64,000 bases of DNA from a virus (IMGVR_UViG_3300020451_002055); one strand, 5' to 3'; positions 4,450 to 50,933 are shown, numbered from the stretch's first letter. Program-made: numbers and translations. Notes: a model not told the origin generated them from the letters alone.

Positions 4450-4648
4450 TTCATTGAAGGGCATTGACGAGCAATGCCGAATGGGGTATGATGGACGAGG
4501 TAAAGGCTCGCTTCGCTGAGTATGCGAGGCGAGAGAAAGAAATAAGGGATGCTCGAATCCGAGAACTCCCTTGGAACGAGCGATGGATGTTTTTGACGAT
4601 CGGAGATATCGTCGGATTCTTCGCTCAAAGTTACAGGAGGCTATACCG

Positions 4649-5724: not shown

Positions 5725-7626
5725 ATGACGCAAACTTCAACCGCATATGACGGATCGTCTATCCAAGTCCTCAAAGGTCTCGAAGCTGTCCGGATGCGTC
5801 CGGGCATGTATATCGGGGACTCAGGTAAAAAGGGGCTCCATCACCTCGTATGGGAAATCGTTGACAACGCCGTCGATGAGGCGATGGCAGGTCATTGCGA
5901 TCGCATCAGTATCGAGATCGCGGAAGACGGAGAAACGGTCTCTGTTGAGGACAATGGTCGAGGCATTCCGGTTGACATGCATCCAACCGAGAAGAAACCG
6001 ACTCTCGAAGTCGTTCTGACAACGCTTCACGCAGGCGGTAAGTTTGGCGGTTCAGGATATACGGCCTCCGGCGGTCTTCATGGCGTCGGGGCGTCTTGCG
6101 TGACGGCCCTCAGCGAAAAGATGGTCGCTACCGTCTGCCGAGACAAGAGCGTCTACGAGATGACATTCTCCCGAGGCGGCGTCGTCAAACAGATGAAGAA
6201 GGTCGGCCCCATGAAGCGAGGCCAGAAGAATGGCACTCGCATCGAATGGAGAGCGGACCCGGAAATCTTCAAGGCTGGCGTTGAGCTTGATGAAAAGGTT
6301 CTTGTCAACCGACTTAGAGAAGTCGCATACCTCAACCGAGGACTGACCGTCGCCTTCGAGAACAAGAAGACGGGCACGAAGTACGAGTTCATGTTCGAGG
6401 GCGGCATCGCCGACTATGTTTCGTACCTCGTCGAAGACAAGTCCGGTCAATACCCGAGCGAACCCATCTTTATCGAGGGTCAAGAAGATGACATGAGGGT
6501 TCAGATTGCTCTCATGTATACGGAAGACGAAGACGAGACCGTACTGACCTTCTGCAACAACATCAATACCGTCGATGGCGGAACGCACCTCTCCGGATTC
6601 CGTTCAGCTTTGACCAGAGTCATCAATAACTTCTACAAGTCGGTTGGAGGCAAGAAAGACAAGGATGACAATCTCGGCGGCAACGATGTCCGAGAGGGAT
6701 TGACCGCCGTTGTCAGCGTTCTCGTTCCCCAGCCCGAACTCGTCGGACAGACAAAGGCGAAGCTCGGAACGGTCAAGGCGGAAGGCGTTACCAGTTCTGT
6801 TACCACAGAGCAGTTGACCGCTTTCTTCGAGAAGAACGCTCCGATCGTCAAGCAGATCATCGAGAGAGCAAAGCTTGCTCAGAGGGCTCGCAATGCCGCT
6901 CGCAAGTCTGCGGACATCATCAAGCGAAAGGGAGTCTTCGGGAGCAGCGGGGGTATGCCCGGTAAGCTCTACGACTGCCAGGCGAAGGATCGCAGCACGA
7001 CCGAACTCTATATCGTCGAGGGCGACTCGGCTGCCGGTTCTGCAAAGGGCGGCAGAGACGCATCGACTCAGGCGGTCATGCCTATCCGAGGTAAAATGAT
7101 CAATGCTGAGAAGCATGGAATAGCTGCTCTTCTCAAGAACAAAGAAGTAGTCGATCTCATCAAGGCCATCGGTACTGGCGTCAAAGATGATTTCGACATC
7201 GACAAGCTGAGGTACGGCAAGATCATCATTATGGCCGACGCCGATGATGACGGCTCGCACATCGCTACGCTTCTGATGACATTCTTCTTCCGCTTTATGA
7301 AGCCGCTTGTTACCGGCGGGCACCTTTATATTGCTATGCCGCCTCTCTATGTCGTTCGCAAGGGCAGTAAATCCATCTACTGCTGGAACGATAAAGACAA
7401 AGACGATGCCCTTAGCAAAATGGCAGGCGGCAAAGTGACTCGATTCAAGGGTCTTGGCGAAATGGATGAAGAACAGCTTGGAGACACGACGATGGACCCG
7501 GACAACCGGCGACTCGTTCGTCTCGAAGTCAACGATTTGGCCGAGGCTGAGAAGGTTGTTTCTGTTCTTATGGGAACGAACGTCGCTGCTCGCAAAGAAC
7601 GACTCAAAGAAAACATCAACGAGTAA
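5725..7626 (+). CDS. gyrB: DNA gyrase subunit B
   Basis: GLEAVRMRPGMYIG, EIVDNAVDE, GGLHGVG, IVEGDSA, DADDDG, RFKGLGEM. Confidence 0.97.
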   Translation: MTQTSTAYDGSSIQVLKGLEAVRMRPGMYIGDSGKKGLHHLVWEIVDNAVDEAMAGHCDRISIEIAEDGETVSVEDNGRGIPVDMHPTEKKPTLEVVLTTLHAGGKFGGSGYTASGGLHGVGASCVTALSEKMVATVCRDKSVYEMTFSRGGVVKQMKKVGPMKRGQKNGTRIEWRADPEIFKAGVELDEKVLVNRLREVAYLNRGLTVAFENKKTGTKYEFMFEGGIADYVSYLVEDKSGQYPSEPIFIEGQEDDMRVQIALMYTEDEDETVLTFCNNINTVDGGTHLSGFRSALTRVINNFYKSVGGKKDKDDNLGGNDVREGLTAVVSVLVPQPELVGQTKAKLGTVKAEGVTSSVTTEQLTAFFEKNAPIVKQIIERAKLAQRARNAARKSADIIKRKGVFGSSGGMPGKLYDCQAKDRSTTELYIVEGDSAAGSAKGGRDASTQAVMPIRGKMINAEKHGIAALLKNKEVVDLIKAIGTGVKDDFDIDKLRYGKIIIMADADDDGSHIATLLMTFFFRFMKPLVTGGHLYIAMPPLYVVRKGSKSIYCWNDKDKDDALSKMAGGKVTRFKGLGEMDEEQLGDTTMDPDNRRLVRLEVNDLAEAEKVVSVLMGTNVAARKERLKENINE

Positions 7627-7629
7627 AAT

Positions 7630-8157
7630 ATGGCTGGCGGATTCAATCCAATCAAAGTTCAGGTCATTGATGGGACATGCTCTATCTATGTCGATGATGT
7701 CCTAGTTGCGAGCTATAACTCAGAAGAGTTTACTCAAGACCCGGATAAAATCAAGCCTGTTCTCGGCGAGTTTGGCATAGAAAGAATCGATATGCCGCTC
7801 GGTCTTTATCTGCTCGATGGAAGATGCATATATGTCTTCCGTAAGACGCCGTACCGCTTTCTAGAAAATCGAAACATGAAGGCTACCTATGTCTACAAGT
7901 ATTTCGATATTGGTCGAGCAGCATGCACGGACAGCGCGATTCAAATCGGCACTCTTCTTGATACCGATTATGCACTGAAGCGAATGCTCAAGATCAATGA
8001 TGAGAATCAGCTTCGGCAGCTACTTATGATTCCAAAGATCATTCTTCGAACGCTAAAAAATCAACAATCGGCCATTGAGGAAGTGATCTCAATCATCGAC
8101 AACATTGAAAACCCGGAAACGGAAGAAGATACAGAGGAAACCGATGACAACAGCTAA
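7630..8157 (+). CDS. hypothetical protein between gyrB and gyrA
   Basis: 175 aa ORF tightly packed between the two subunit genes. Confidence 0.7.
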   Translation: MAGGFNPIKVQVIDGTCSIYVDDVLVASYNSEEFTQDPDKIKPVLGEFGIERIDMPLGLYLLDGRCIYVFRKTPYRFLENRNMKATYVYKYFDIGRAACTDSAIQIGTLLDTDYALKRMLKINDENQLRQLLMIPKIILRTLKNQQSAIEEVISIIDNIENPETEEDTEETDDNS

Positions 8158-10603
8158 CATCATCTCCGGCTCGTTTGCGGGCGAGATCGACTCCAACTTT
8201 ACCCGATACGCCTATTTGACAATCGAAGACCGGGCACTGCCCGATGCAAGAGACGGTCTCAAACCGTCGCAGCGTCGTCTTCTTGTCTCCATGAACGATC
8301 TCAAGCTCCGTCCTAGCGGGGCTCCGAAGAAGTGTGCCAAGATCTGCGGTCAAACGAGCGGCGATTACCACCCTCACGGCGAACAGGTCGTTTACCCGAC
8401 TCTCGTCCGTATGGCTCAGCATTGGGTCATGCGTCATCCTCTCGCCATGCCTCAGGGCAACTTCGGCAATATCGATGGCGACCCGCCCGCTGCTATGCGT
8501 TATACGGAGTCAAAACTGTCTCCCGTGGCGATGCTGCTGCTCGATGATCTGAGCAAAGATGTTGTTGATTTCGCTCCCAACTACAATGAGGAACTCGAAG
8601 AACCAACCGTTCTTCCCTCGAAGATTCCGAACCTGCTTATCAACGGAGCTTCGGGTATTGCTGTTGGTTATGCAACGAACATGGCCCCTCATAACCTTGG
8701 CGAAGTCCTCGCTGCAACCAAGGCCTACATCGAAGACCCGGACATCACGGTCGAAGATGTCATGACGATCATGCCGGGTCCAGATTTCCCCAACGGCGGC
8801 AAGATTCTCGGCAAGTCCGGCATCCGAGACTACTACAAGACGGGCCGGGGCTCTGTCAAACTCGAAGGCTCATGGGAAATCATCGAGAAGAAGGGTAAGT
8901 CGCAGATCATTATTCGCGAACTGCCTTACATGACGGGTCCGACTGAGTTCCTCAACCAGCTTGTTGCTCTTGTCGAAGCTGGCGATCTCAACGGCATCTC
9001 TGACGCCCGAGACCTGACTTCCAAGAAGAACGGCCTCTGCGTTCAGATCGACCTGTCAAAGGGCACGTCGCCCGACTTGGTTCTTGCTACGCTGCAGAAG
9101 CGAACGTGCCTGAGGAAGACATTCTCTGTCAATCAGACCGTCATGGTCGATGGCGAACTCAATGAGTCGTTGCCAATCATCGACCTGATCAAGACCTTCG
9201 TCGAGTTCAGAGAGCTTTGCATTACTCGAAAGCTCGAAGCAGAGCGCAACGAGAACCTCAGGCGTACCGAGATCGTTGACGGTTACATTCAGGCGACAAA
9301 GCAGCTTGATAAGGCCATTCAGATCATCAGAGATGCCGACGACCCTGAAGAGGCAAAGCGAGGGCTGCTCGGAGCGAACATCGTCAAGACCGAGAGACAG
9401 GCGGACGCCGTTCTGAGCATGACGCTCCGCTCTCTGACCAAGCTCGAAGCCTCGAACCTCAAGGAGGAGCTTCAGTCGCTCAAGGACCGCAAGGATTGGC
9501 TTGATGGCGTCATCGGCAACTCGGTCGAGACCCGCAAGATCATTATCGAAGAGATCGACGAGATTTCCAAGAAGCATGCCAATGAACGTCGGAGCATCAT
9601 CGACATCGATCCGACCGACATCAGCGAAGAAGACCTGATCGAAGACGAGAGAGTTATGATCTCGCTGTCCGGCGAGGGTTACGTCAAGCGTATCCCAACC
9701 GAAGAGTATCGCCTGCAGAAGAGGGGCGGCTCTGGTAGCCGTAGCTCAGGTAAGAAGACGCAAGACGGCGCTGTCGAGATGTTTGAAGGCTCAACGAAGG
9801 ACATTCTGTTCTTCTTCACCAACCGAGGACGAGTCTTCCAGAGGAAGGCATACGAGATTCCTCAGGCGAGCAAGACTTCGAGAGGCATGCATGTCTCGAA
9901 CATGCTTGACCTGAATCCGGAAGAAGTCGTTACGAACATGGTCTCCGTTGCGGAGATTCCGGAAGACGGCTACCTCGTCATGGTTACAAAGAACGGGTTC
10001 ATCAAGCGTTCGAGGATTCAGGATTACGACTCGAACCGCCGCAACTCTGGCATCAACGGAATCAAGCTCGATGATGGCGATGAGGTTGCATATGTCTTGC
10101 CAACGAACGGTTCATATGACATCTTCATTGTTACCGAACAGGGCAACGCCATTCGCTACTCTGAAGATATCATCAGAGTCCAAGGCCGAGCAACTCGCGG
10201 CTCTCGGGCACTCAAGCTCAATCCGGGCGATCGGGTTGCTCAGACCTTTACTCTTGATCCTGACTCGAATCCCGATGTCTTTGTCATCACCTCTGCCGGA
10301 TACGGCAAGAAGACTTCCGCAGACCAGTACCGCTCATCCGGCAGCCGAAATGTCAAGGGATGCGCGGTTCTCAAGAAGGATGCTCTCAAGTCGAGAGGCG
10401 GAACGCTTGTCGGGGCATGCGCTCTCTATGGCGGCGAATCCTTGCTCGCTCTGACCAAGATGGGGCAAGCGATCCGATTCGCAGAGAAGGATATCCGAAG
10501 CACCGGACGGACTACGGGCGGCGTCAGAGTCGTCAAACTGACTGATGGCGATGCGGTCGTCAAGCTCGCTACGCTTGCTGCTGAGGAAGAAGACGAAGAC
10601 TGA
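8144..10603 (+). CDS. gyrA: DNA gyrase subunit A
   Basis: RALPDARDGLKP, YHPHG, AAMRYTE, GyrA-box QKRGGSG, C-terminal pinwheel repeats. Confidence 0.97.
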   Translation: MTTANIISGSFAGEIDSNFTRYAYLTIEDRALPDARDGLKPSQRRLLVSMNDLKLRPSGAPKKCAKICGQTSGDYHPHGEQVVYPTLVRMAQHWVMRHPLAMPQGNFGNIDGDPPAAMRYTESKLSPVAMLLLDDLSKDVVDFAPNYNEELEEPTVLPSKIPNLLINGASGIAVGYATNMAPHNLGEVLAATKAYIEDPDITVEDVMTIMPGPDFPNGGKILGKSGIRDYYKTGRGSVKLEGSWEIIEKKGKSQIIIRELPYMTGPTEFLNQLVALVEAGDLNGISDARDLTSKKNGLCVQIDLSKGTSPDLVLATLQKRTCLRKTFSVNQTVMVDGELNESLPIIDLIKTFVEFRELCITRKLEAERNENLRRTEIVDGYIQATKQLDKAIQIIRDADDPEEAKRGLLGANIVKTERQADAVLSMTLRSLTKLEASNLKEELQSLKDRKDWLDGVIGNSVETRKIIIEEIDEISKKHANERRSIIDIDPTDISEEDLIEDERVMISLSGEGYVKRIPTEEYRLQKRGGSGSRSSGKKTQDGAVEMFEGSTKDILFFFTNRGRVFQRKAYEIPQASKTSRGMHVSNMLDLNPEEVVTNMVSVAEIPEDGYLVMVTKNGFIKRSRIQDYDSNRRNSGINGIKLDDGDEVAYVLPTNGSYDIFIVTEQGNAIRYSEDIIRVQGRATRGSRALKLNPGDRVAQTFTLDPDSNPDVFVITSAGYGKKTSADQYRSSGSRNVKGCAVLKKDALKSRGGTLVGACALYGGESLLALTKMGQAIRFAEKDIRSTGRTTGGVRVVKLTDGDAVVKLATLAAEEEDED

Positions 10604-10618
10604 ATGTGAAGACTATCT

Positions 10619-11254
10619 ATGCTATGCTTTTCTCCTTGCATAAAGGAGCTTAGCATGGTTACGGACTCTGATCTTTTTGCTCTTGAAACGCCTGGTCGGG
10701 TCTACTGCGATGATTGCATGGTGCAGTCAGTTCGCGAAGGGCTTATCCTCTGGAACGACAAACCCGGTAGCGTCATTCAACTCCGCAGAATAAAGACCAG
10801 TTCCTTCAAAGTTCCCAAGGTCATTATCGGACAGATCAAAAACATTGAAGATGGAGGCACTAATGCGGTTTCTGTCTTTTCTGTAGAGACTGATGATCAT
10901 GGTTCTATCATGATCGAAACAAATCATGGCGAACTCTGGGAGTTTGAGATCAACGGTAAGACTTTCAAGCATGCCGGACCTTTGGATACGAACCTCGACG
11001 GAAAGGTTAACGCATCCGACCTAGAATACATGACCTCCCACCCCTACGACTGGCCTAGCGATGGCAGAACAGACTCCAACGACGGCGACTTTCTGCATGT
11101 CTCCATATTTCAGAACGCAATCCTTCCTCATCTCAACCGCGCCGATCTGCTCTCGCTTGAGCGTCGGCAGGCTTTCGTAGAAGTCTACGGTCCAAACCGA
11201 GCAAGCCGGAACCGGGCTTTGTCGAGGATTTTGAGGGCCAGGAAGATGTCCTAA
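10619..11254 (+). CDS. hypothetical protein with dockerin/EF-hand-like Ca-binding loop
   Basis: DTNLDGKVNASDL motif. Confidence 0.55.
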   Translation: MLCFSPCIKELSMVTDSDLFALETPGRVYCDDCMVQSVREGLILWNDKPGSVIQLRRIKTSSFKVPKVIIGQIKNIEDGGTNAVSVFSVETDDHGSIMIETNHGELWEFEINGKTFKHAGPLDTNLDGKVNASDLEYMTSHPYDWPSDGRTDSNDGDFLHVSIFQNAILPHLNRADLLSLERRQAFVEVYGPNRASRNRALSRILRARKMS

Positions 11255-20439: not shown

Positions 20440-20468
20440 TTGACCTCTTGGACGAATAGGGTTACTAT
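20440..20468 (+). promoter_or_regulatory. sigma70-type promoter
   Basis: TTGACC-17 nt-TACTAT. Confidence 0.7.
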
Positions 20469-20492
20469 CCAAGCCCACCAATAGGAGAAACC

Positions 20493-20531
20493 ATGGGACA
20501 GGTCAAAGCTAAATCGAAACGAAAGCACTGA
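20493..20531 (+). CDS. Lys-rich leader peptide MGQVKAKSKRKH
   Basis: AGGAGA SD right after promoter; 4 Lys codons in 12; upstream of tRNA-Lys genes. Confidence 0.6.
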   Translation: MGQVKAKSKRKH

Positions 20532-20663
20532 TCGCCCAGGTTCCGTCTCCTTCCACCCAATCAAAATCAAGACGGCCTACCTTGGCCTTGCAGGTGACAG
20601 GAGCACCCCGTATGCTGCAAGTGCTGTCGCAATTGGTCAAAATGAAGGCAAGGAAATGCCTTC

Positions 20664-23415: not shown

Positions 23416-23783
23416 GACGCAAAGGTTTTTCTCTTATCGAACTCCTCGTTGTTATGGCGATCATCGCACTGCTCATCGCTATCATTGTTCCTGCTATTGG
23501 CAAAGCAAGACAGCATCAACTCGAACAGGACCGCATCAACTCGCCCGACTACGTTCCTCCTCGCTTCGACGAGCAAGAGCGGGCCATTCTCGATCTCGTT
23601 GACAACATTGTCTATGTCCGCGATCCGAAAAGCGGCCTGGTCTACGCTATCATCAGAGAGACTAATCAGGAAGATGACTATAATGAAGGCTATGGTTGGG
23701 GCTACGGCTACATGGCAATTGTCCCGCCGGACCAGATTGAGAGAATCGAGCATCTGATCATTAATCGCGGCATTGATGATTGA
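23412..23783 (+). CDS. prepilin-type N-terminal cleavage/methylation domain protein
   Basis: MRRKG/FSLIELLVVMAIIALLIAIIVPAIGKAR type IV pilin N-terminus. Confidence 0.9.
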   Translation: MRRKGFSLIELLVVMAIIALLIAIIVPAIGKARQHQLEQDRINSPDYVPPRFDEQERAILDLVDNIVYVRDPKSGLVYAIIRETNQEDDYNEGYGWGYGYMAIVPPDQIERIEHLIINRGIDD

Positions 23784-23808
23784 CAGCGTGTTTCCTTGAG
23801 GCTACTAT
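23780..23808 (+). promoter_or_regulatory. sigma70-type promoter
   Basis: TTGACA-17 nt-TACTAT. Confidence 0.7.
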
Positions 23809-24071
23809 AGGCTTCGAGTCGAACTAGAGATACTACAAAGGAGAACCCATATGCAGACGATTGACAACCCCAACCTGAGCAGACTGACGCGCGAAGGCGC
23901 TGTTGGTATTGCGTTGATTTCAGCGGTTGCTCTTGGGTGCGTCGTCTGCCCGTATGCCGGTTTCCTTGGTATTGCGGGTCTTGCGATTTGGGGCCACAAG
24001 TTGGCCGATGCATCTGAGAGCTTTGTCGCTCGCCGACTCAAACGCACCTCTGTTGCCTAAGACACAACAGA

Positions 24072-24143
24072 GGGGGCGTAGCTCAGAGGCAGAGCAGCGG
24101 ACTTTTAATCCGAAGCGCGGGATTTCGAAACTCCCCGCCCTCA
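24072..24143 (+). tRNA. tRNA-Lys(TTT), divergent
   Basis: GGGGGCG/CGCCCTC acceptor, CTTTTAA loop, TTCGAAA T loop with imperfect stem. Confidence 0.8.
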
Positions 24144-32150: not shown

Positions 32151-32188
32151 AGATCGCCGGAGCCCGAAAAGCTTCGGCGATCTTTTTT
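32151..32188 (+). terminator. intrinsic terminator
   Basis: AGATCGCCGGAGC/GCTTCGGCGATCT hairpin + T run. Confidence 0.85.
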
Positions 32189-32212
32189 CGTGTATTGTTG
32201 GAGGAATAATCC

Positions 32213-32240
32213 TTGACTGTCGAGTATTTGGGTATACGCT
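32213..32240 (+). promoter_or_regulatory. sigma70-type promoter
   Basis: TTGACT-16 nt-TACGCT just after terminator. Confidence 0.55.
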
Positions 32241-32263
32241 TCGGCGACCAAAGGATTTTGACC

Positions 32264-32317
32264 ATGAACAGCTTCGGCTCCAACAAGTTCAGGCGAGAAG
32301 AACGTAGAGAACGCTAA
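32264..32317 (+). CDS. Glu/Arg-rich leader peptide MNSFGSNKFRREERRER
   Basis: AAGGA SD; last 8 codons AGG CGA GAA GAA CGT AGA GAA CGC; directly upstream of tRNA-Glu cluster. Confidence 0.65.
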   Translation: MNSFGSNKFRREERRER

Positions 32318-32381
32318 TCTTGCGCACTCCGTTCGTCCTTTGACACCCCTTTACAACTGAGTTCGCAAGATCGACCCTCCT

Positions 32382-32454
32382 GCCGCCATCGTCTAGTCGG
32401 GCAGGATAGCTGCCTCTCAAGCAGCAGACGAGGGTTCGATTCCCTCTGGCGGCA
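32382..32454 (+). tRNA. tRNA-Glu(CTC)
   Basis: GCCGCCA/TGGCGGC, GCTGC-CTCTCAA-GCAGC, GGTTCGATTCC. Confidence 0.92.
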
Positions 32455-32470
32455 CTTCAAAATCAGGTAC

Positions 32471-32542
32471 GGCCCCGTCTTCTAGTGGTCAGGAATCCGG
32501 ACTCTCACTCCGGCAACGGCGGTTCGAATCCGCTCGGGGTCA
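32471..32542 (+). tRNA. tRNA-Glu(CTC)
   Basis: GGCCCCG/CGGGGTC, CCGGA-CTCTCAC-TCCGG, GGTTCGAATCC. Confidence 0.92.
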
Positions 32543-32548
32543 TTCATA

Positions 32549-32623
32549 GGCGCTGTAGTTTCTGCTGGTAGAAACGCTGGTCTTTCAAGCCGGAGTCCGA
32601 GGGTTCGATCCCCTTCAGCGTCA
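32549..32623 (+). tRNA. tRNA-Glu(TTC)
   Basis: GGCGCTG/CAGCGTC, CTGGT-CTTTCAA-GCCGG, GGTTCGATCCC. Confidence 0.88.
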
Positions 32624-32663
32624 TTTGTAGGTGAAAGCTGTTTTGGGTATCTTGGCAAAGCAA

Positions 32664-33120
32664 ATGAAGACTTGTTCAAAATGCAAAGAAAGCAAACTTG
32701 AAGAATGCTTTGCTAAAAAGACCAAAGGTAAATTGCAGCCTTGGTGTAAGAACTGTAACAGGTCGTATCAAAAGAGCCATTACAAAGCAAATAAGCAGAA
32801 GAGAGTTTCTCAGGTAAATGAGTACAAGAAAGATCGAAGACTACAACTCAGGCAAAGACTTTATCAGTTCTTGCTTGAAAACCCATGCGTAGACTGCGGA
32901 GAAAATGATCCTGTCGTTCTTGAGTTTGACCATGTTCGAGGACAAAAAAACAAGCGACATAAGCTCCATGATCGGCCAATGCTCTTCATGGGACAGGATA
33001 CAAGATGAAATAGCGAAATGCGAAGTACGATGCGCCAATTGCCATCGAAAACAAACAGCAATACGTCAAGGCTGGAAAGTGCAATGGCAGCAAGCAGGAG
33101 AAGATTTCAATGTCAGATAG
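32664..33120 (+). pseudogene. HNH endonuclease frameshifted at A7 run (32944-32950)
   Basis: Frame 1 ends ...CVDCGENDPVVLEFDHVRGQK; next frame continues KTSDISSM...EIAKCEVRCANCHR. Confidence 0.8.
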
Positions 33121-33409
33121 TGAACAACAAGAGATTCGTCTGCATGGTCCTCATCCGGGCCTTCTCGGAGCCGCTGCTCCGATACCCGAGGAACTACGGC
33201 TTGCAGCCAATGAGCTTGATGGGAAGACCATGAAGCAGATTGATGCTTGGCATGCTCTCAACCGGGTGGCAGTTGAGCTACCGGGTGTCGAACTCAAAGA
33301 ACGCAACTCTTGTTTCCTCGCGACGCTTATGAGTGACGGTCGTCCTGTTCATTGTTGGAGAGTTATCAGTTTCGAGCCAACCGAAGTCGCAGGTGGCAAC
33401 AGCGAGTGA
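33110..33409 (+). CDS. hypothetical protein
   Basis: AGGAG SD. Confidence 0.6.
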   Translation: MSDSEQQEIRLHGPHPGLLGAAAPIPEELRLAANELDGKTMKQIDAWHALNRVAVELPGVELKERNSCFLATLMSDGRPVHCWRVISFEPTEVAGGNSE

Positions 33410-33444
33410 TATACTGAGGCTGTCGTAAAGGGCAGCCGTTTGAA

Positions 33445-33519
33445 GGCCCTATCGTCTAGTCAGGTCTAGGACTCCAGGTTTTCATCCTGGCAACCGGGGT
33501 TCAAATCCCCGTAGGGTCA
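33445..33519 (+). tRNA. tRNA-Glu(TTC)
   Basis: GGCCCTA/TAGGGTC, CCAGG-TTTTCAT-CCTGG, GGTTCAAATCC. Confidence 0.92.
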
Positions 33520-33723
33520 TTGGAGATTGAAGATGACAACGCAAGCAGAGCATCCCGAACAGATCGTCAGCCGTACCGAACTCGTCGAGATCCTGATTCG
33601 AGAGAACGGATGCGCCGAGGACGATGCTCAGACGCAAGCAAGCCTCGCCGGTCCCACCGGCCTCATCGTCAAGGGAACTCGCTACATCGTCGGCAAGGGC
33701 GAAGACGACTAAGGAGAGGCTTT

Positions 33724-34494
33724 ATGACCGCTGAAACCAAGCGAAAGACGACCTTCATTAGCGAAGGGCCGGATTGGGTCGAAATCGACTCAGACAATAA
33801 TGAGATCAGCCGAGTTCGTAAGCCGACGTTTGAAACAGGCCATGTCATCAAGCCATTCGCCATCTACGGCGGCTACATTCTGAGGGAAATCGCCGGGCAC
33901 GCCGAAGGAACTCGGGTTGGAATCATGACGGTTCCCGGCGGCAAGCTCTACATTCTCAAAGATGGAGAGCAGATTCATCTCGATGCAAAGGCAGGAGAAG
34001 ACTTTGACTTCGATGTGCCGATCAGTGTCATCGAAGAAGCTCCTGATCGAGACGACGATGATCTTCAGATCGATGATCGAGAACGAGTCGCTGACATGCT
34101 CAAGCAGGTCGAAGACGCCGAAGCTGCGATGGAAGAGCATGCCATCGTCGGGGCTGATCTGATCGCGGAAATGATCGCTGCAGAACAGATCAATATGAAG
34201 CCTGAGAATGCTCGGGTTGAAATCTTTCACGGCAACGGAACTCACTCGGACGATGGTTGCCTTATCATCTACGATGATTCAAAAGTTCTGAAGTACGAAA
34301 AGGTCAACATCAAGAAAATGGTCGAGTCTGGTCAGATGCCAGGCTTCATTGTTAAACCTGATCAAGCCGTTCAACTTCTCTTTCTTGCATTGCAAGCGAG
34401 AGAGGCTTTGATGATGCCGAAAGCTTCGATGCAGTTGAGGCTGGGCGTTGCTCATGATCTCTTCAATATCCTCGAAGAAATCGGGATCATCTAA
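33724..34494 (+). CDS. hypothetical protein
   Basis: AAGGAGAGG SD before ATG 33724. Confidence 0.75.
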   Translation: MTAETKRKTTFISEGPDWVEIDSDNNEISRVRKPTFETGHVIKPFAIYGGYILREIAGHAEGTRVGIMTVPGGKLYILKDGEQIHLDAKAGEDFDFDVPISVIEEAPDRDDDDLQIDDRERVADMLKQVEDAEAAMEEHAIVGADLIAEMIAAEQINMKPENARVEIFHGNGTHSDDGCLIIYDDSKVLKYEKVNIKKMVESGQMPGFIVKPDQAVQLLFLALQAREALMMPKASMQLRLGVAHDLFNILEEIGII

Positions 34495-34719
34495 TGATCA
34501 GCGAACTACACGATGAGGCGCATCTGATTGCAGATTGCCGAAACGATGATGTGATTGTTGCAGCGCATGCTTTGGCAGAAAGGACAAAAGAATCACGGGT
34601 CTTGCAAGAAATGGTCAAGTTGCATCAGGAAATCAAGACTCAGAACGCAGCAGATGAGAATGGCGGTGTCAACATGATCATCAATACAGATGAATATGCA
34701 TACGCCATCATTGGATAAT

Positions 34720-34793
34720 GCTCTCGTAGCTCAGTTGGATAGAGCATCGGTTTCCTAAACCGAAGGTCGTTGGTTCGAGCCCAACCGGGAGTG
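34720..34793 (+). tRNA. tRNA-Arg(CCT)
   Basis: GCTCTCG/CGGGAGT, TCGGT-TTCCTAA-ACCGA, GGTTCGAGCCC. Confidence 0.92.
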
Positions 34794-34797
34794 CTTT

Positions 34798-35118
34798 ATG
34801 AGTACGAATCTTTCAGACATGACGCCTGCCGAGCTTGATGCTGAGATCGGAAAGCTTGAAGCTCAGATTGAACACATCAAGCAGGTCAAATCTGAAGTTG
34901 AAAGTCTGACGCCTGCGCAGCAGCTTGCAACTGCTTTGCATAAGAGGCAATGCCGCCATAACCATACAGACGGTTGCGGATGGTATTACGAGAAGTGGAC
35001 TGACTGCCAAGGGAAATACTCATCAAAGAGAACCTGGGTCGAGAGAGCAGAAAAACTGCTCGCGACCGGTAAGTCAATGGAAGAGCTTATCGAGATCGCG
35101 GACCTGATGAGAGGATAG
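34798..35118 (+). CDS. hypothetical protein
   Basis: Coiled-coil N-terminus, H..C..H...C.W motif. Confidence 0.7.
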   Translation: MSTNLSDMTPAELDAEIGKLEAQIEHIKQVKSEVESLTPAQQLATALHKRQCRHNHTDGCGWYYEKWTDCQGKYSSKRTWVERAEKLLATGKSMEELIEIADLMRG

Positions 35119-36151
35119 GAGCAAAACCGACCCCTGATCCATTATAGTAACGGGTAGCAATCGATTGCTTGATTGGCAGCGGAACCTTCCGGCCAATCTG
35201 GCCGATAGCCGCCTGCACATCAATGATGCCGTTTCCGTATTTGGCATCTTTACCCGCATCACCTAGATCAATGGAGGTCTTTCTAAGATGCTCTCGAACG
35301 TCCTCGACCGTGTTGACCGGAGTTCTACCGCCGAACTTTCTATGCTTGGCAATCATCAGGGCAACAATACCCGTTATCCAAGGAGTCGCAAACGAGGTGC
35401 CCGACGATCGGCGGTATTCGCTGCCCGGAAACGTACTGCGAACGTCAACGCCGGGGGCGACGAAATCGAGGTTAGGGCCAGTGTTGCTGAAGTCTGCTTT
35501 CAGGACATCCCTATCGACAGCCCCTACCGCAATGGTCTCCCTGTAAGCAGCAGGCCAAACGACATCGCTATGCTCGTCGAGGCCGAAATTGCCCGCTGCG
35601 CAGATCATCGGGATGTCAGCTTCGTAAGCCCGGCGTACCGCATCGGTCAGCCAGGTATTGTTCGCGCTCATGTAGATCGAGAAGTTGATGATATCGACGC
35701 CATCGTCGATGGCCTGATGGATTCCATTCAGGATATCGTCGTAGCTTCCGCCTGCTTCGGCGTTGAGGCAACGGTAGGGTCTGACTTGAGCCTTCGGTGC
35801 AACTCCATGTACGCCGTGGCCGTTGCGTTTGGCACAGATGATGCCGGTAACGAACGTTCCGTGGCCGTGTTCATCCGACATCGGACTATCCGGGTTCACA
35901 AAAGCCTTACCCGGAAGAAGATTACCCGTCAAGTCAACATGATTGATGTCGCAACCGGAGTCGATGACTCCGACGACAACGCCCTCTCCTTCGGTCTGAT
36001 GCCAGACAGAAGGGACATGGTAGTTAGCGATCTGGTATGCGCTCTCGTTCTCCCAAGAACGAGGGTCCACGATGTCATCTGCTCCCGCAGCTTTGGCCGA
36101 GTAGTTCATGCCCTTCTTTTCTGTCTCAAGTACCTCCTTTCCTCCATGCAT
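35087..36151 (-). CDS. S8 (subtilisin-like) serine peptidase
   Basis: VIDSG, HGHGT, AAGN, SGTSFATP catalytic motifs. Confidence 0.93.
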   Translation of the reverse strand: MHGGKEVLETEKKGMNYSAKAAGADDIVDPRSWENESAYQIANYHVPSVWHQTEGEGVVVGVIDSGCDINHVDLTGNLLPGKAFVNPDSPMSDEHGHGTFVTGIICAKRNGHGVHGVAPKAQVRPYRCLNAEAGGSYDDILNGIHQAIDDGVDIINFSIYMSANNTWLTDAVRRAYEADIPMICAAGNFGLDEHSDVVWPAAYRETIAVGAVDRDVLKADFSNTGPNLDFVAPGVDVRSTFPGSEYRRSSGTSFATPWITGIVALMIAKHRKFGGRTPVNTVEDVREHLRKTSIDLGDAGKDAKYGNGIIDVQAAIGQIGRKVPLPIKQSIATRYYNGSGVGFAPILSSGPRSR

Positions 36152-38327: not shown

Positions 38328-38350
38328 CCGCCCAACGTAGGGCGGTTTTT
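38328..38350 (+). terminator. intrinsic terminator
   Basis: CCGCCC/GGGCGG hairpin + TTTTT. Confidence 0.65.
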
Positions 38351-38377
38351 GTTCCGGTAGCTCAACTGGATAGAGCA
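38351..38377 (+). pseudogene. 5' half of an interrupted tRNA-Arg
   Basis: GTTCCGG-TA-GCTC AACTGGATA GAGC-A; acceptor strand pairs with CCGGAGC at 38910-38916. Confidence 0.75.
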
Positions 38378-38385
38378 GGAGCAGT

Positions 38386-38459
38386 AGGGCGGTAGCTTAA
38401 TTGGATAAAGCAACGGTCTTCTAAACCGTCGAGTGCGGGTTCGAGTCCCGCCCGCCCTG
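38386..38459 (+). tRNA. tRNA-Arg(TCT)
   Basis: AGGGCGG/CCGCCCT, ACGGT-CTTCTAA-ACCGT, GGTTCGAGTCC. Confidence 0.92.
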
Positions 38460-38519
38460 TTCAGTAGATTAGAAGGAGTTATTCTAATCTGTCCGTATTC
38501 ATAGTCAGGAGGTCTGACT

Positions 38520-38882
38520 ATGGATACCAAGCATTGCCCGAAGTGTGATACCGAAAAGAGTCTCGAAGAGTTCTACAAGAAAGGAGCAGATCGCTACCAG
38601 CCTTATTGCAAGTCTTGTTTCAACCAATATTGCCAAGATCGATGGAGAAGGCGAAAGGTTGAAGCAATCAAAGCAAAGGGAGGCAGGTGTAGTAAATGCG
38701 GATACGATAAAAACTACGCTGCTCTTGAGTTCCATCACCGAGACGATGAAGATAAAGAGATGGATTGGAGCAAGGCGAGATTAGCTTCGGAAAAGAGGAT
38801 GCTTGCGGAGCTTGACAAATGCGACTTGGTTTGTCGTAACTGTCATGCAGAACTTCATAACCCTCAAGGTATGAACTTCTAA
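38520..38882 (+). CDS. HNH endonuclease
   Basis: CPKC..CKSC, KGGRCSKCGY, ALEFHH, LDKCDLVCRNCHAELH; AGGAGG SD. Confidence 0.9.
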   Translation: MDTKHCPKCDTEKSLEEFYKKGADRYQPYCKSCFNQYCQDRWRRRKVEAIKAKGGRCSKCGYDKNYAALEFHHRDDEDKEMDWSKARLASEKRMLAELDKCDLVCRNCHAELHNPQGMNF

Positions 38883-38917
38883 ACCGTAGGTTGTGGGTTC
38901 GAGTCCCACCCGGAGCG
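38876..38917 (+). pseudogene. 3' half of interrupted tRNA-Arg(TCT)
   Basis: CTTCTAA-ACCGT-AGGTT-GTGGG TTCGAGT CCCAC-CCGGAGC-G. Confidence 0.8.
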
Positions 38918-45495: not shown

Positions 45496-45523
45496 TTGAC
45501 AACCGCCGCAAGGCGGTTATTCT
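45496..45523 (+). promoter_or_regulatory. sigma70-type promoter of RNA cluster
   Basis: TTGACA-16 nt-TATTCT; spacer is a palindrome ACCGCC GCAA GGCGGT. Confidence 0.65.
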
Positions 45524-45859
45524 TTGACCTCATGCCCTCGGTTGGGCATACGAAACGGAGTAGACTATGCGACCCGCCAACGACATCCCGAACCCCGCCA
45601 AGGGGACAGGGCCGTGCCTTGAAAAAGGCACAGTCGGCGTTGATCGCGCCTCCGTCGATAGCAGCGATCAACTCTGATACCTGCTCCCCTCCGACCAAAA
45701 ATCTGGTAAAGCTTGAAGGATTTTTCGCAGCTTTGCGTGAATCCTTACGCTACCCCTCAACTTCATGACGAAGTATAGGGACCGACGCAGCGACCTACCA
45801 ATCGCTTAGTCAGAGACAAATACTGATCAGCAGGTGAAAGCCTGGTTTGGTATATTGCA

Positions 45860-45923
45860 GTTTGGGTTGAAGAATCAAGGTTATCTTGACAATGGCTCCT
45901 TGGTTCAACTCCCTTACCCAAAC
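45860..45923 (+). ncRNA. minimal Y RNA-like element 1
   Basis: GTTTGGGT-TGA-A-GAATCAAGG-TTATC...CCTTGGTTC-AACTCC-CTT-ACCCAAAC. Confidence 0.7.
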
Positions 45924-45928
45924 GTCAT

Positions 45929-46002
45929 CAGAGTGTAGCTCAGTTTGGCAGAGCGTCTGGTTCGGGGCCAGAAGGCCGGAGGTTCAAATCCTCTCACTCT
46001 GA
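45929..46002 (+). tRNA. tRNA-Pro(CGG)
   Basis: CAGAGTG/CACTCTG, TCTGG-TTCGGGG-CCAGA. Confidence 0.92.
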
Positions 46003-46683: not shown

Positions 46684-46887
46684 ATGGCAAGTATTTGTTC
46701 GAAACATCAAGAGTATGATCCGGATTGCGATCTATGCAAAGTAGACCTTTCTGATAGTCCTCTGTTTCAACAAATGCATGCCGAAGCAGAAGCAGCAGGC
46801 ACGCATGTCTGCGAGGAATGCAAGTTCCTCTATTACAAGACTGTCGATTCATGTCCGCTCTGCGGTCATCGACGGATTGACAACTGA
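46684..46887 (+). CDS. small Zn-finger protein
   Basis: CxxH/CxxC and CEEC..CPLC motifs. Confidence 0.6.
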   Translation: MASICSKHQEYDPDCDLCKVDLSDSPLFQQMHAEAEAAGTHVCEECKFLYYKTVDSCPLCGHRRIDN

Positions 46888-46890
46888 ATA

Positions 46891-47049
46891 GACTTTTGAT
46901 CTGTAGGAACCTGTTTAGGCAGGGAAATAAGGCCGGTATTACCAAACCTCGGTACACGGTCGCGAGCCTGAGGAAGGCAAGCCTGTCGGAGTAAGCTCCC
47001 GATTCTGTCCAAGAGTAAGAGGTTGTGAGGACGAGCAGATCAAGCAGTC
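46891..47049 (+). ncRNA. candidate structured ncRNA
   Basis: Closing helix GACTTTTGATCTG/CAGATCAAGCAGTC, starts right after TTGACAACTGAATA motif. Confidence 0.45.
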
Positions 47050-47078
47050 TACGGGATAAAACCCGTCTACTGCTTTCA

Positions 47079-47138
47079 TGGGCTGAAGAGTCAAGGTTAA
47101 CTTGGTAATGTTGCACCCTTGCCTCACTAACTTGCCCA
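47079..47138 (+). ncRNA. minimal Y RNA-like element 2
   Basis: TGGGC-TGA-A-GAGTCAAGG-TTAAC...CCTTGCCTC-ACTAA-CTT-GCCCA. Confidence 0.7.
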
Positions 47139-47151
47139 GACAATCAAAGAT

Positions 47152-47222
47152 CGGACTGAAGAATAGAAGGTTAACTTCAATTTTGATTTGAAACCCAACA
47201 CCCTTCATTCACTCCTTGTCCG
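47152..47222 (+). ncRNA. minimal Y RNA-like element 3
   Basis: CGGAC-TGA-A-GAATAGAAGG-TTAAC...CCTTCATTC-ACTC-CTT-GTCCG. Confidence 0.7.
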
Positions 47223-47230
47223 TTCTTGTT

Positions 47231-47359
47231 AGCGACGTAGCTCAATTGGTAGAGCGCCTAAAAGGTCTTCAACCAACGCCTTACCCGGCACGGGTTGATG
47301 GAATTGAAGGTTATCGCATGTGGAGCGGGAGGTTGCAGGTTCGAGTCCTGTCGTCGCGA
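47231..47359 (+). ncRNA. tRNA-shaped RNA with Y-like stem in anticodon arm (A)
   Basis: Acceptor GCGACG/CGTCGC, D arm, T arm; insert CTT-ACCCG GCA CGGGT-TGA...GGTTATC. Confidence 0.8.
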
Positions 47360-47377
47360 TTGAAAAACTGAATACAA

Positions 47378-47502
47378 CGCAACGTAGTTTAACGGCAAAA
47401 CACCTAAACATCGTTGTCCGCCCCTTACCCGATTCGGGTTGATGGAATTGACGGTTATCCTCTATCAAAGGGGTGATCCAGGTTCGAATCCTGGCGTTGC
47501 GT
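47378..47502 (+). ncRNA. tRNA-shaped RNA with Y-like stem in anticodon arm (B)
   Basis: Acceptor CGCAACG/CGTTGCG, D arm GTTT/AAAC, T arm; insert CTT-ACCCG ATT CGGGT-TGA...GGTTATC. Confidence 0.8.
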
Positions 47503-47523
47503 TTGAAAACTGAATAGACTTTT

Positions 47524-47626
47524 ACGGGTTGAATGCAATCGTTTATCGTTGGTTCAAGTCCAATCGCCGTTCTGCGGCGTAGCCCCAACTCAGGCGAGGG
47601 GCATTCGAGAGCAGTACCTTACCCGT
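47524..47626 (+). ncRNA. YrlA-type Y RNA (T arm, loop-closed acceptor stem, D arm inside terminal stem)
   Basis: ACGGGT-TGA...TTTATC-GTTGG TTCAAGT CCAAT-CGCCG TTCTG CGGCG-TA-GCCCC..GGGGC...CTT-ACCCGT. Confidence 0.8.
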
Positions 47627-47630
47627 TTTT

Positions 47631-47761
47631 CGTGCAGTAGCTCAACAGGTAGAGCGGCAGTCAAAAAGGTCCATGACCGATTTGCTTGCTCGTTTCGAGT
47701 TGAAGGTTGATGGTTATCTATCGCAAAACTGCTTGTGGAGGTTCGAGTCCTTCCTGCACGA
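47631..47761 (+). ncRNA. tRNA-shaped RNA with Y-like stem in anticodon loop (C)
   Basis: Acceptor CGTGCAG/CTGCACG, anticodon stem GCAGT/ACTGC; insert CTT-GCTCG TTT CGAGT-TGA...GGTTATC. Confidence 0.8.
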
Positions 47762-49262: not shown

Positions 49263-50933
49263 ATGGCATACACGAAGCACTTCAGCGCAAAGAAGACCCC
49301 GCAGAACGTCCCGACTCCGGGGAAGAACCAGAAGAAGAACAACGCGGGCGGTTACGTCTATGAGATCACTCCTTGGGATCGCTTGCAGCGATTCCTGATC
49401 CTAGGCTCCGAGGGCGGCTCGTACTACGTCGGCGAGCGTAAGCTCACCGTCGATAACGCGAACTGCGTAATCGATTGCCTCAAGGAGGACGGTCGTCGCG
49501 TCGTGGACATGATCGTGGAGATTTCGGATGCGGGTCGCGCCGCTAAGAACACTCCGGCTCTGTTCGCGCTGGCTCTCGCTGCATCGGCGGATGAGCTTGA
49601 GACCCGCAAGTACGCGCTCGCAAACCTCTCGAAGGTTGCGCGTATCGGTACTCACCTCTTCGAGTTCGCGCAGTTCGTCAACCAGTTCCGTGGTTGGGGT
49701 CGTAACCTCAAGGAGTCGATCGCTAACTGGTACCTTGACATGGACGCAGAGCGTCTGGCCTACCAGGTCGTCAAGTACCCGCAGCGCACGACCGAGGAGG
49801 GCGACAGCCTGTCGGTATGGTCGCACCGCGACCTGCTCCGTAAGGTCCGCCCGAGCAACGTCAAGGGAGATCACAACAAGATCTTCGGCTATGTAACTCA
49901 GGGATGGGACACCATCCCGAGCCGTAGCCCGAAGGCTTTGCAGATCATCCGCGGAACCGAGAAGATCAAGCGAGCAAAGAGCGCAGATGAGGCCGCAGGT
50001 CTCATCGAGGAGTTCTCGTTGCCGCACGAGGTTGTTCCGAAGGAGTTCTCGGGAGATCCGAAGGTTCTCACCGCCCTCCTGCAGAGCATGCCGTTGACTG
50101 CGACGATGCGTAACCTTGGTCGCTTGACCGCGCGAGGCGTTCTTGTCCCGATGGGCAAGGAGACCTCGATGGTTATCGATCGCCTGACGGATGAGGACTA
50201 CATCCGCAAGAGCAGGATCCACCCGATCAACGTTCTTGCGGCTCTGAAGACCTACTCGCAGGGCTCAGGTCACCGCGGAAGCATGTCTTGGCAGCCGATT
50301 CAGCCGATCGTCGATGCTCTCGACTCGATGCTCTACAAGAGCTTCGGGAACATCGAGCCGACCGGCAAGAAGATTCTCATTGCCCTCGATGTTTCGGCGT
50401 CGATGGACTGGGACGGCTGCTCGGGCTTGAGCCAGATTACTCCGCGCGAGGCTTCGGCTGTCATGTCCATGGCAACCGCTCGCGTTGAGAAGAACTACCA
50501 CATCGTCGCTTTCTCAAGCGGCGGTTGGTCGAGAGGCTCGGGCCGTAGTCGCTACGGTTGGGGCTCGGGTATCCAGGATGTGGCGATCTCGCCTCGTCAG
50601 CGTTTGGACTCGGTAGTTAGCACCGTTTCTAGCCTGCCAGCAGGCGGAACCGACTGCGCTTTGCCGATGCTCTACGCTACCGAGAAGGGAATGGACATCG
50701 ACGCATTCGTTGTCTACACGGACAACGATACCTGGGCAGGAGACATCCACGCGGATCAGGCACTCAGAGAGTACCGCCGAAAGTTCAACCCGGAGGCGAA
50801 GCTCATTGTTGCCGGAACCGCATCGACCGAGTTCTCGATCGCTGACCCGAGCGATCCGGGCATGCTCGATGTTGTCGGATTCGACTCGTCGGCTCCGAGC
50901 GTCATCTCCTCGTTCATTCGAGGCATGGACTAA
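49263..50933 (+). CDS. rsr: Ro60 (TROVE + vWA) RNA-binding protein
   Basis: NNAGGYVY, RLQRFLILGSEGGSYY, WSHRDLLR, RNLGR, SRIHP, MIDAS DVSASM, GGTDC, YTDNDTW, MLDVVGFDS. Confidence 0.96.
   Translation: MAYTKHFSAKKTPQNVPTPGKNQKKNNAGGYVYEITPWDRLQRFLILGSEGGSYYVGERKLTVDNANCVIDCLKEDGRRVVDMIVEISDAGRAAKNTPALFALALAASADELETRKYALANLSKVARIGTHLFEFAQFVNQFRGWGRNLKESIANWYLDMDAERLAYQVVKYPQRTTEEGDSLSVWSHRDLLRKVRPSNVKGDHNKIFGYVTQGWDTIPSRSPKALQIIRGTEKIKRAKSADEAAGLIEEFSLPHEVVPKEFSGDPKVLTALLQSMPLTATMRNLGRLTARGVLVPMGKETSMVIDRLTDEDYIRKSRIHPINVLAALKTYSQGSGHRGSMSWQPIQPIVDALDSMLYKSFGNIEPTGKKILIALDVSASMDWDGCSGLSQITPREASAVMSMATARVEKNYHIVAFSSGGWSRGSGRSRYGWGSGIQDVAISPRQRLDSVVSTVSSLPAGGTDCALPMLYATEKGMDIDAFVVYTDNDTWAGDIHADQALREYRRKFNPEAKLIVAGTASTEFSIADPSDPGMLDVVGFDSSAPSVISSFIRGMD

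Follow-up and report, generated by a model that had tools for sequence, protein, structure and literature searches.

A conserved Glu-codon leader and a predicted ribosome-dependent RNA switch ahead of the tRNA-Glu genes of a giant marine phage

Why would a phage place a short reading frame, whose second half consists entirely of Arg and Glu codons, directly ahead of a block of tRNA-Glu and tRNA-Arg genes? The reasons why phages carry tRNA genes are a long-open question, and the control of these genes has hardly been studied. The locus considered here lies in a stretch of 64,000 nt from the virus IMGVR_UViG_3300020451_002055, which we refer to as the window; a preliminary description of positions 32,213-34,793 had read it as a candidate attenuator that senses tRNA supply through the Glu and Arg codons of a leader peptide. 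The DNA of the window occurs in Tara Oceans assemblies on contigs of up to 486,961 bases, and its source is a giant marine phage. Its host is probably a planctomycete. This assignment rests on one gene family, that of the phage ClpN-domain gene, whose best matches in genomes are Planctomycetota (all 80 of those that carry a taxon name, mostly Phycisphaerae). Rho is encoded in 5/5 Planctomycetota genomes. The tRNA genes of the window are grouped by amino acid, with three tRNA-Lys genes in one group, four tRNA-Glu genes with tRNA-Arg in a second, and Pro, Met, and Asp tRNA genes in a third.

The Glu group is separated from its upstream neighbor, a thioredoxin/membrane-protein operon, by an intrinsic terminator at 32151-32189 (+ strand, as are all features below unless stated; a 13-pair stem at 32151-32183 followed by a U run), which insulates the leader/tRNA-Glu unit, and a similar hairpin is present in three related loci (L003, L004, and L008). 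A sigma70-type promoter follows at 32213-32240 (-35 TTGACT at 32213, a spacing of 16 nt, -10 TACGCT at 32235). It scores below the threshold of a consensus scan, and its support comes from conservation: TTGACTG is invariant and TAnnnT is kept in the window and six aligned relatives, and a similar motif heads all three tRNA groups of the window (Lys, Glu, and Pro/Asp). We infer from this that the promoter is active. Next come a Shine-Dalgarno-like AAAGGA (32250-32255), located 8 nt upstream of an ATG, and the leader ORF itself (32264-32317), with 17 codons of which codons 10-17 are all Arg or Glu. The 64 nt between its stop and the first tRNA-Glu gene contain a C-rich stretch flanked by the inverted repeat TCTTGCG (32318-32324)/CGCAAGA (32364-32370). 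Two tRNA-Glu(CTC) genes (32382-32455 and 32471-32542) and a tRNA-Glu(TTC) gene (32549-32623) are followed by a passenger gene at 32670-33120, which is HNH-like by motif only, has no Pfam match, and appears in three-frame translation to be broken by a frameshift close to a run of A residues at about 32945. The fourth Glu gene, a tRNA-Glu(TTC) at 33445-33519, lies 1.1 kb downstream among protein genes, and a gene for a 256-aa protein at 33724-34494, likewise without a Pfam match, is kept within the Glu block in all relatives. A tRNA-Arg(CCT) gene at 34720-34794, 2.4 kb downstream and also among protein genes, probably shares the leader/tRNA-Glu transcript, since no terminator-like site was found on the + strand between 32183 and 37396. 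At the gathering score, Rfam covariance models matched only tRNAs in the window, and neither a T-box nor any other cis-regulatory RNA.

All elements listed in the preliminary description (terminator, promoter-like motif, 17-codon Glu/Arg ORF, inverted repeat, four tRNA-Glu genes, and the two tRNA-Arg genes) are thus where it had placed them. The tRNA-Arg(TCT) gene that it counted among the genes behind the leader (38385-38460) is, however, outside the described span, at a distance of 6 kb. It lies on the far side of a protease gene on the opposite strand (35087-36151) and just behind a terminator at 38328-38350, and therefore probably belongs to a separate transcription unit.

Glu is encoded in the leader ORF three times, always by GAA, and Arg five times, each time by a different codon (AGG, CGA, CGT, AGA, and CGC). 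Together, Glu and Arg make up 8 of the 16 leader codons (binomial p 0.0007; base-shuffle p 0.0014), with the caveat that this pair was chosen after the tRNAs had been seen; for Glu alone (3/16, p 0.12), the enrichment is not significant. When leaders were compared with their own and with other tRNA blocks, the enrichment for the own block was 6.0x for Lys, 3.5x for Glu/Arg, and 1.6x for Pro/Asp/Met, against at most 1.04x off the diagonal. Every leader was thus enriched most strongly for the tRNAs of the block behind it, in support of a codon-specific sensor. A further suggestion, that AGG and AGA are rare codons matched to the phage Arg tRNAs, was correct as to the match and as to rarity in the probable host (planctomycete clpC segments, 3% and 2%), whereas in the phage genes these codons make up 13% and 20% of Arg codons; given their rarity in the clpC segments, slow decoding of both soon after infection would still be conceivable. 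The other three of the five Arg codons, CGA, CGT, and CGC, have no matching tRNA among the two Arg tRNAs of the phage. An AGG in the leader co-occurs with tRNA-Arg(CCT) in 5/6 loci of the Arg/Glu type, which we dropped as evidence because it goes along with GC content and kinship. Purine richness is moreover common to Glu, Arg, and Lys codons, and any strand that pairs with a C/U tract must share it.

Relatives of the locus were gathered through homologues of two of its genes, that for the upstream membrane protein (83-40% identity) and that for the 256-aa protein of the block. This yielded seven distinct syntenic loci with DNA (L003, L004, L005, L008, L009, L011, and L029), which represent one phage family and are not independent cases. 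Every one of them (7/7) has the promoter and an ORF of 16-18 codons with its ATG, frame, and stop, followed by tRNA-Glu genes, and the leader lengths of 16, 17, and 18 codons differ by whole codons. The uORF conservation that the preliminary description had asked for is thus found, and the survival of ATG, frame, and stop in all seven, while the upstream or block gene is 40-83% identical, supports a sensor that is read as an ORF. In L003, L004, L008, L009, and L011, the Arg/Glu tail is kept, with 94% DNA identity in the second half of the ORF, while the first half is 48% identical among the window and these five loci and yet remains open and in frame. Across the same six sequences, the arms of the hairpin described below are 91-92% identical, as compared to 41-55% for the 5′ UTR, the first half of the ORF, the loop, and the downstream DNA.

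The two remaining relatives, L005 and L029, are the most instructive with regard to the signal. Their diverged 16-codon leader has three GAA codons, two of which align with window codons 13 and 16, and no Arg codon, and both loci nevertheless keep tRNA-Arg(CCT). Since Glu codons are retained even where Arg is gone, Glu is, as read from these alignments, the family-wide leader signal and Arg a lineage-specific, optional one. Arg as a general input, as initially suggested, is not supported, in view of these two relatives and of the three Arg codons that the phage tRNAs do not read. An apparent absence of Arg tRNA from L008 and L011 was rejected, as Rfam found atypical Arg(TCT) genes in both. Outside the family, an exact-pattern search of GTDB genomes did not find the leader element, and thus no host origin is shown; in IMG/VR, no relatives emerged from three protein queries or from the leader pattern, and two looser pattern matches, with neither a leader ORF nor an adjacent tRNA, were chance.

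RNA folding predicts that the leader can adopt two mutually exclusive structures. In the first, a rod-like hairpin at 32317-32371 (hereafter the rod) stacks three helices below a C-rich loop of 16 nt, with a predicted energy of -16.2 kcal/mol and a z score of -3.7 against shuffles. In the second, predicted for the ribosome-free RNA, post-stop positions 32322-32343 pair with the end of the ORF and with the Shine-Dalgarno-like sequence (the latter opposite 32337-32343), which precludes the rod. Five leaders of the Arg/Glu type are predicted to adopt both folds (rod z scores of -3.7 to -7.6, as compared to -1.95 for L005), and a helix that blocks the Shine-Dalgarno-like sequence is predicted in all leaders folded, built from different sequences. 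A ribosome modeled at successive positions selects between the folds: The window rod forms with a probability of 0.98-1.0 when the ribosome stands on codons 9-14 and 0.4 at codon 16, falling to 0 at codon 17 or the stop and to 0.06 when no ribosome is present, and the rod switches with ribosome position in 7/7 leaders modeled. In these computations, the leader RNA would thus have exclusive 1:2 and 2:3 pairings set by the position of the ribosome. The core pairs of the rod are invariant across relatives, and covariation therefore neither supports nor contradicts it; the third codon positions in the leader tail, which pair with the post-stop arm, are almost invariant too.

We propose, with a probability of about 0.6, that a translated, Glu-codon sensor resembling a leader-peptide attenuator gates the tRNA-Glu block of the phage, which probably makes tRNA-Glu when ribosomes read the leader codons slowly. 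Transcription by the host RNA polymerase would start near 32247, and a ribosome would translate the 17 leader codons, as their conservation as an ORF suggests. When Glu-tRNA (in this lineage also Arg-tRNA) is scarce, the ribosome would linger on codons 10-14 and cover the end of the ORF, and the rod is computed to form; this would be the ON state. A ribosome that reaches the stop would cover the left arm of the rod, and after its release this arm is computed to pair with the ORF end and the Shine-Dalgarno-like sequence, limiting re-initiation. The net effect would be a negative feedback in which phage tRNAs are produced whenever GAA decoding is slow, whatever the cause; host tRNA cleavage, amino-acid starvation, and plain tRNA-supply feedback are candidate triggers that the present sequence evidence does not separate.

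How the two folds would be converted into output appears to differ within the family. A hairpin with a U tract lies upstream of the first tRNA in L005, L029, L008, and L011, and in the first three the switch overlaps it: The rod, extended into the last leader codons, takes the left arm of the terminator. Co-transcriptional snapshots for L005 and L029 gave a probability of about 1.0 for this arm being taken when the ribosome stands on codons 8-10, GAA9 among them, as compared to 0.14-0.36 with the ribosome at the stop. In equilibrium folding, the terminator mostly forms anyway, also in L005 and L029, so that their ON state would have to be kinetic. The overlap in L008 is partial (three bases, and only with the ribosome at or before the second Glu), and L011 displays no clean exclusion of its terminator, with a downstream hairpin at a probability of 0.99 at every ribosome position. 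Between leader and first tRNA, no U-tract terminator was found in the window, L003, L004, or L009. The place of the relatives' terminator is occupied in the window by a predicted hairpin at 32378-32406, which resembles the L008 terminator arms, uses the D arm of the first tRNA, and is not followed by a U tract. At -12.4 kcal/mol it is the strongest such alternative fold among ten window tRNAs, and it has a modeled probability of about 0.84 at every ribosome position, without any response. The first tRNA begins 11 nt after the rod, and its position turns over between relatives.

For the window we tentatively prefer Rho-dependent termination as the output, at somewhat less than even odds if the sensor is real. 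The preference derives from the C-rich post-stop RNA (24 C and 10 G in 32319-32381, a C/G ratio of 2.4 over 63 nt, with only 0.3% of 63-nt windows as C-skewed), from the presence of Rho in planctomycetes, and from precedents: Control of Rho termination by a uORF is established for mgtA, corA, tna, and speF (PMC12360218), and terminator-less cognate-codon leaders have been noted in Mycobacterium cys operons (PMC1262725). Rho would act on the C-rich RNA where it is exposed and be denied it in the rod, and the hairpin at 32378-32406 would serve as a pause site. The C-rich RNA is short and enclosed by the rod in one state, yet its modeled free length differs little between states (25 versus 31 nt), and the space of 64 nt between stop and tRNA is short for a Rho site.

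A sister element precedes the tRNA-Lys genes. At 20440-20600, a promoter, a 12-codon Lys-rich leader (20493-20531), and a post-stop rod lie ahead of three tRNA-Lys genes, with 4 Lys among 11 codons (p 0.003) and no U tract after the rod. The ORF is kept in two further relatives, L026 (10 codons with three Lys) and L027, where all four Lys codons are retained and four synonymous changes relative to the window fall within the last five sense codons; the rod is modeled as ribosome-dependent in the window and L026 but not in L027. The Lys codons of L027 are all AAA, which may reflect composition, as the locus is AT-rich; behind its leader, the first tRNA (10075-10155) is degenerate, with a TTT-like loop. 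In the window, a second promoter-like motif in the Lys block (23780-24143) precedes a 69-aa membrane ORF and a tRNA-Lys(TTT), whose expression may not depend on the Lys leader. We do not count the Pro/Asp block as a third case: Its 36-codon ORF at 45567 has 4 Pro and 4 Asp codons (p 0.04-0.15) and, although L003 and L008 conserve it, carries a frameshift in L112 and is absent from L029. From the initial proposal of a codon-sensing attenuator there remain, then, the conserved ORF, the ribosome-dependent two-state fold, the matching Lys leader, and the terminator overlap in three relatives, whereas a switch-controlled terminator was not found in the window.

Other readings of these data deserve consideration. 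The leader could be a structured RNA that acts in processing, stability, or put-like antitermination, with the ORF incidental and the Glu and Arg codons a by-product of a purine strand that pairs with the C/U tract. The nearly invariant, paired third positions of the tail, the invariant rod core, and the loss of the Pro/Asp frame in one relative speak for such a role. The persistence of ATG, frame, and stop through 48%-identical sequence and whole-codon length changes speaks against it, as do the synonymous changes in the Lys leader, the correctly spaced Shine-Dalgarno-like sequence, and the fact that only 0.14% of base shuffles of the leader ORF reach eight Glu/Arg codons, and we consider it quite improbable. 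A slightly smaller chance still is given to a translated leader that responds to general translation stress, or arrests the ribosome through its nascent peptide, and not to cognate tRNA supply. Both the Glu and the Lys leader end in +X+ patterns (R-E-R and K-x-K) like the macrolide-arrest motif described in PMC12583479, the amino-acid tail is fixed in five relatives, and any slow ribosome on codons 9-15 yields the rod in the model; the L005 and L029 leaders, however, keep their Glu codons and fold without a basic residue, and each leader matches its own tRNA block and not the others.

The sensor might also be real in the family but, in the window, either vestigial, with the terminator lost and the block constitutive, or post-transcriptional, acting on folding or processing of the first tRNA. 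Such a role would fit the four terminator-less loci, the close spacing of rod and first tRNA, the alternative hairpin through its D arm, and the turnover of its position. Yet in the terminator-less leaders, rod and tail are no less conserved than elsewhere (91-94% identity in these segments), which would not be expected of a dead element, and the D-arm hairpin is insensitive to the modeled ribosome position; we therefore regard this reading as improbable. Returning to the Glu-codon sensor, its most far-reaching form would have separate codon-specific Glu and Lys sensors through which the phage detects which host tRNA a defence system has depleted or cleaved and transcribes only the matching replacement set, here via a terminator-less output (Rho or an RNA antiterminator); this we hold to be possible but doubtful.

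The closest known systems are the leader-peptide attenuators of amino-acid and synthetase operons, among them trpL, hisL, thrL, ilvL, pheM-pheST, and the predicted Streptomyces trpS/leuS attenuators (PMC1262725), which share with the locus a promoter, a short ORF whose last part contains cognate codons, and exclusive 1:2/2:3 pairings set by the ribosome; the terminator overlapped by the switch is alike in L005, L029, and L008. Here, in contrast, the genes concerned are tRNA genes in a phage, and the window has no 3:4 terminator with a U tract, so that its element lacks one defining feature of the classical class, an exclusive intrinsic terminator. Salmonella mgtA/mgtL and corA and E. coli tnaC and speFL (PMC12360218) are similar in that C-rich RNA behind a short ORF becomes accessible or inaccessible depending on where the ribosome stands, with no intrinsic terminator; they differ in that the putative signal here is charged tRNA-Glu, the output is tRNA, and the Rho site is putative and only 64 nt before the tRNA. 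Taken with the folding models, the element would work like ribosome-mediated leader-peptide attenuation, with tRNA genes as its target. In the literature searched, in which subscription papers are thinly covered, no tRNA genes were described as being under leader-peptide control.

Phage tRNAs are known to rescue infection from tRNA-cleaving defences, as for T5 tRNA-Tyr against retron-Eco7 (PMC11555353) and tRNA-Lys against PARIS (PMC11464382; see also PMC10264068). The locus is alike in that replacement tRNAs are supplied, here as several divergent Glu bodies; for T5 and SP15, rescue was attributed to a strong promoter, with no codon-sensing control described there (PMC11555353), and a Glu-tRNA nuclease of the present host would be hypothetical. 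The Anabaena trn operon (PMC8421152, PMC10272220) likewise comprises an array of tRNAs that is induced under impaired translation, but the repressor TrcR takes the place of a leader ORF in its control, which is not amino-acid specific. If the proposed sensor is true, tRNA output would be tied to the reading of the same codons, a direct feedback of tRNA on its own synthesis. Codon compensation, starvation, and anticodon-nuclease rescue then become testable with a 170-nt reporter, and the family would extend such studies to a probable planctomycete host; since some of its members have a terminator and others lack one, nature also provides the variants needed to take the output step apart.

Several further features of these loci were observed. 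The window tRNA-Arg at 38351-38917 is split by a cassette consisting of the complete tRNA-Arg(TCT) and an HNH-like gene, and its 5′ end lies immediately next to the U tract of the terminator at 38328-38350. The atypical tRNA-Arg(TCT) genes of L008 (4738-4814) and L011 (5175-5251) combine a much reduced D arm with a long variable region and were missed by ARAGORN; that of L011 sits inside a split tRNA-Arg. In a relative in SRR20820736, a PF00749 gene of 282 aa (a GluRS catalytic domain or GluQ-like; locus 6611-7459) lies directly behind the Glu-leader position. L005 (14742-15542) and L029 (11658-12455) carry an EF-Ts-like gene (PF00889) within the Glu/Arg block, before tRNA-Arg(CCT), and their Glu blocks also contain a tRNA-like element (L005 about 11170-11235; L029 about 8040-8107) whose 5-pair anticodon stem is closed by only 4 nt, possibly a decoy or a decayed tRNA.

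An 11-nt pattern, GYAGGTGAMAG, occurs once per tRNA block (20590, 32627, and 45830; 0.11 expected, for a pattern chosen after sighting), and its core recurs in relatives. It forms the right arm of the rod in the Lys leader and can form a GAAA-tetraloop hairpin at 45830. A fourth promoter-like motif at 4464-4546 is followed by a 7-codon ORF and no tRNA. The leader of the Pro/Asp/Ro60 block is strongly folded in the window (45496-45930), L003 (13902-14245), L008 (9429-9840), and L112 (11255-11690), with Pro at codons 3, 8, and 10 of the 36-codon ORF kept in all four, and a 17-nt stretch at about 45790 recurs at about 48695. Upstream of a Ro60/TROVE gene (Pfam), at 46870-47761 and 49263-50933, lie tRNA-like RNAs whose anticodon arm carries inserts and which resemble Y RNAs, and these are also present in L008 and L112.
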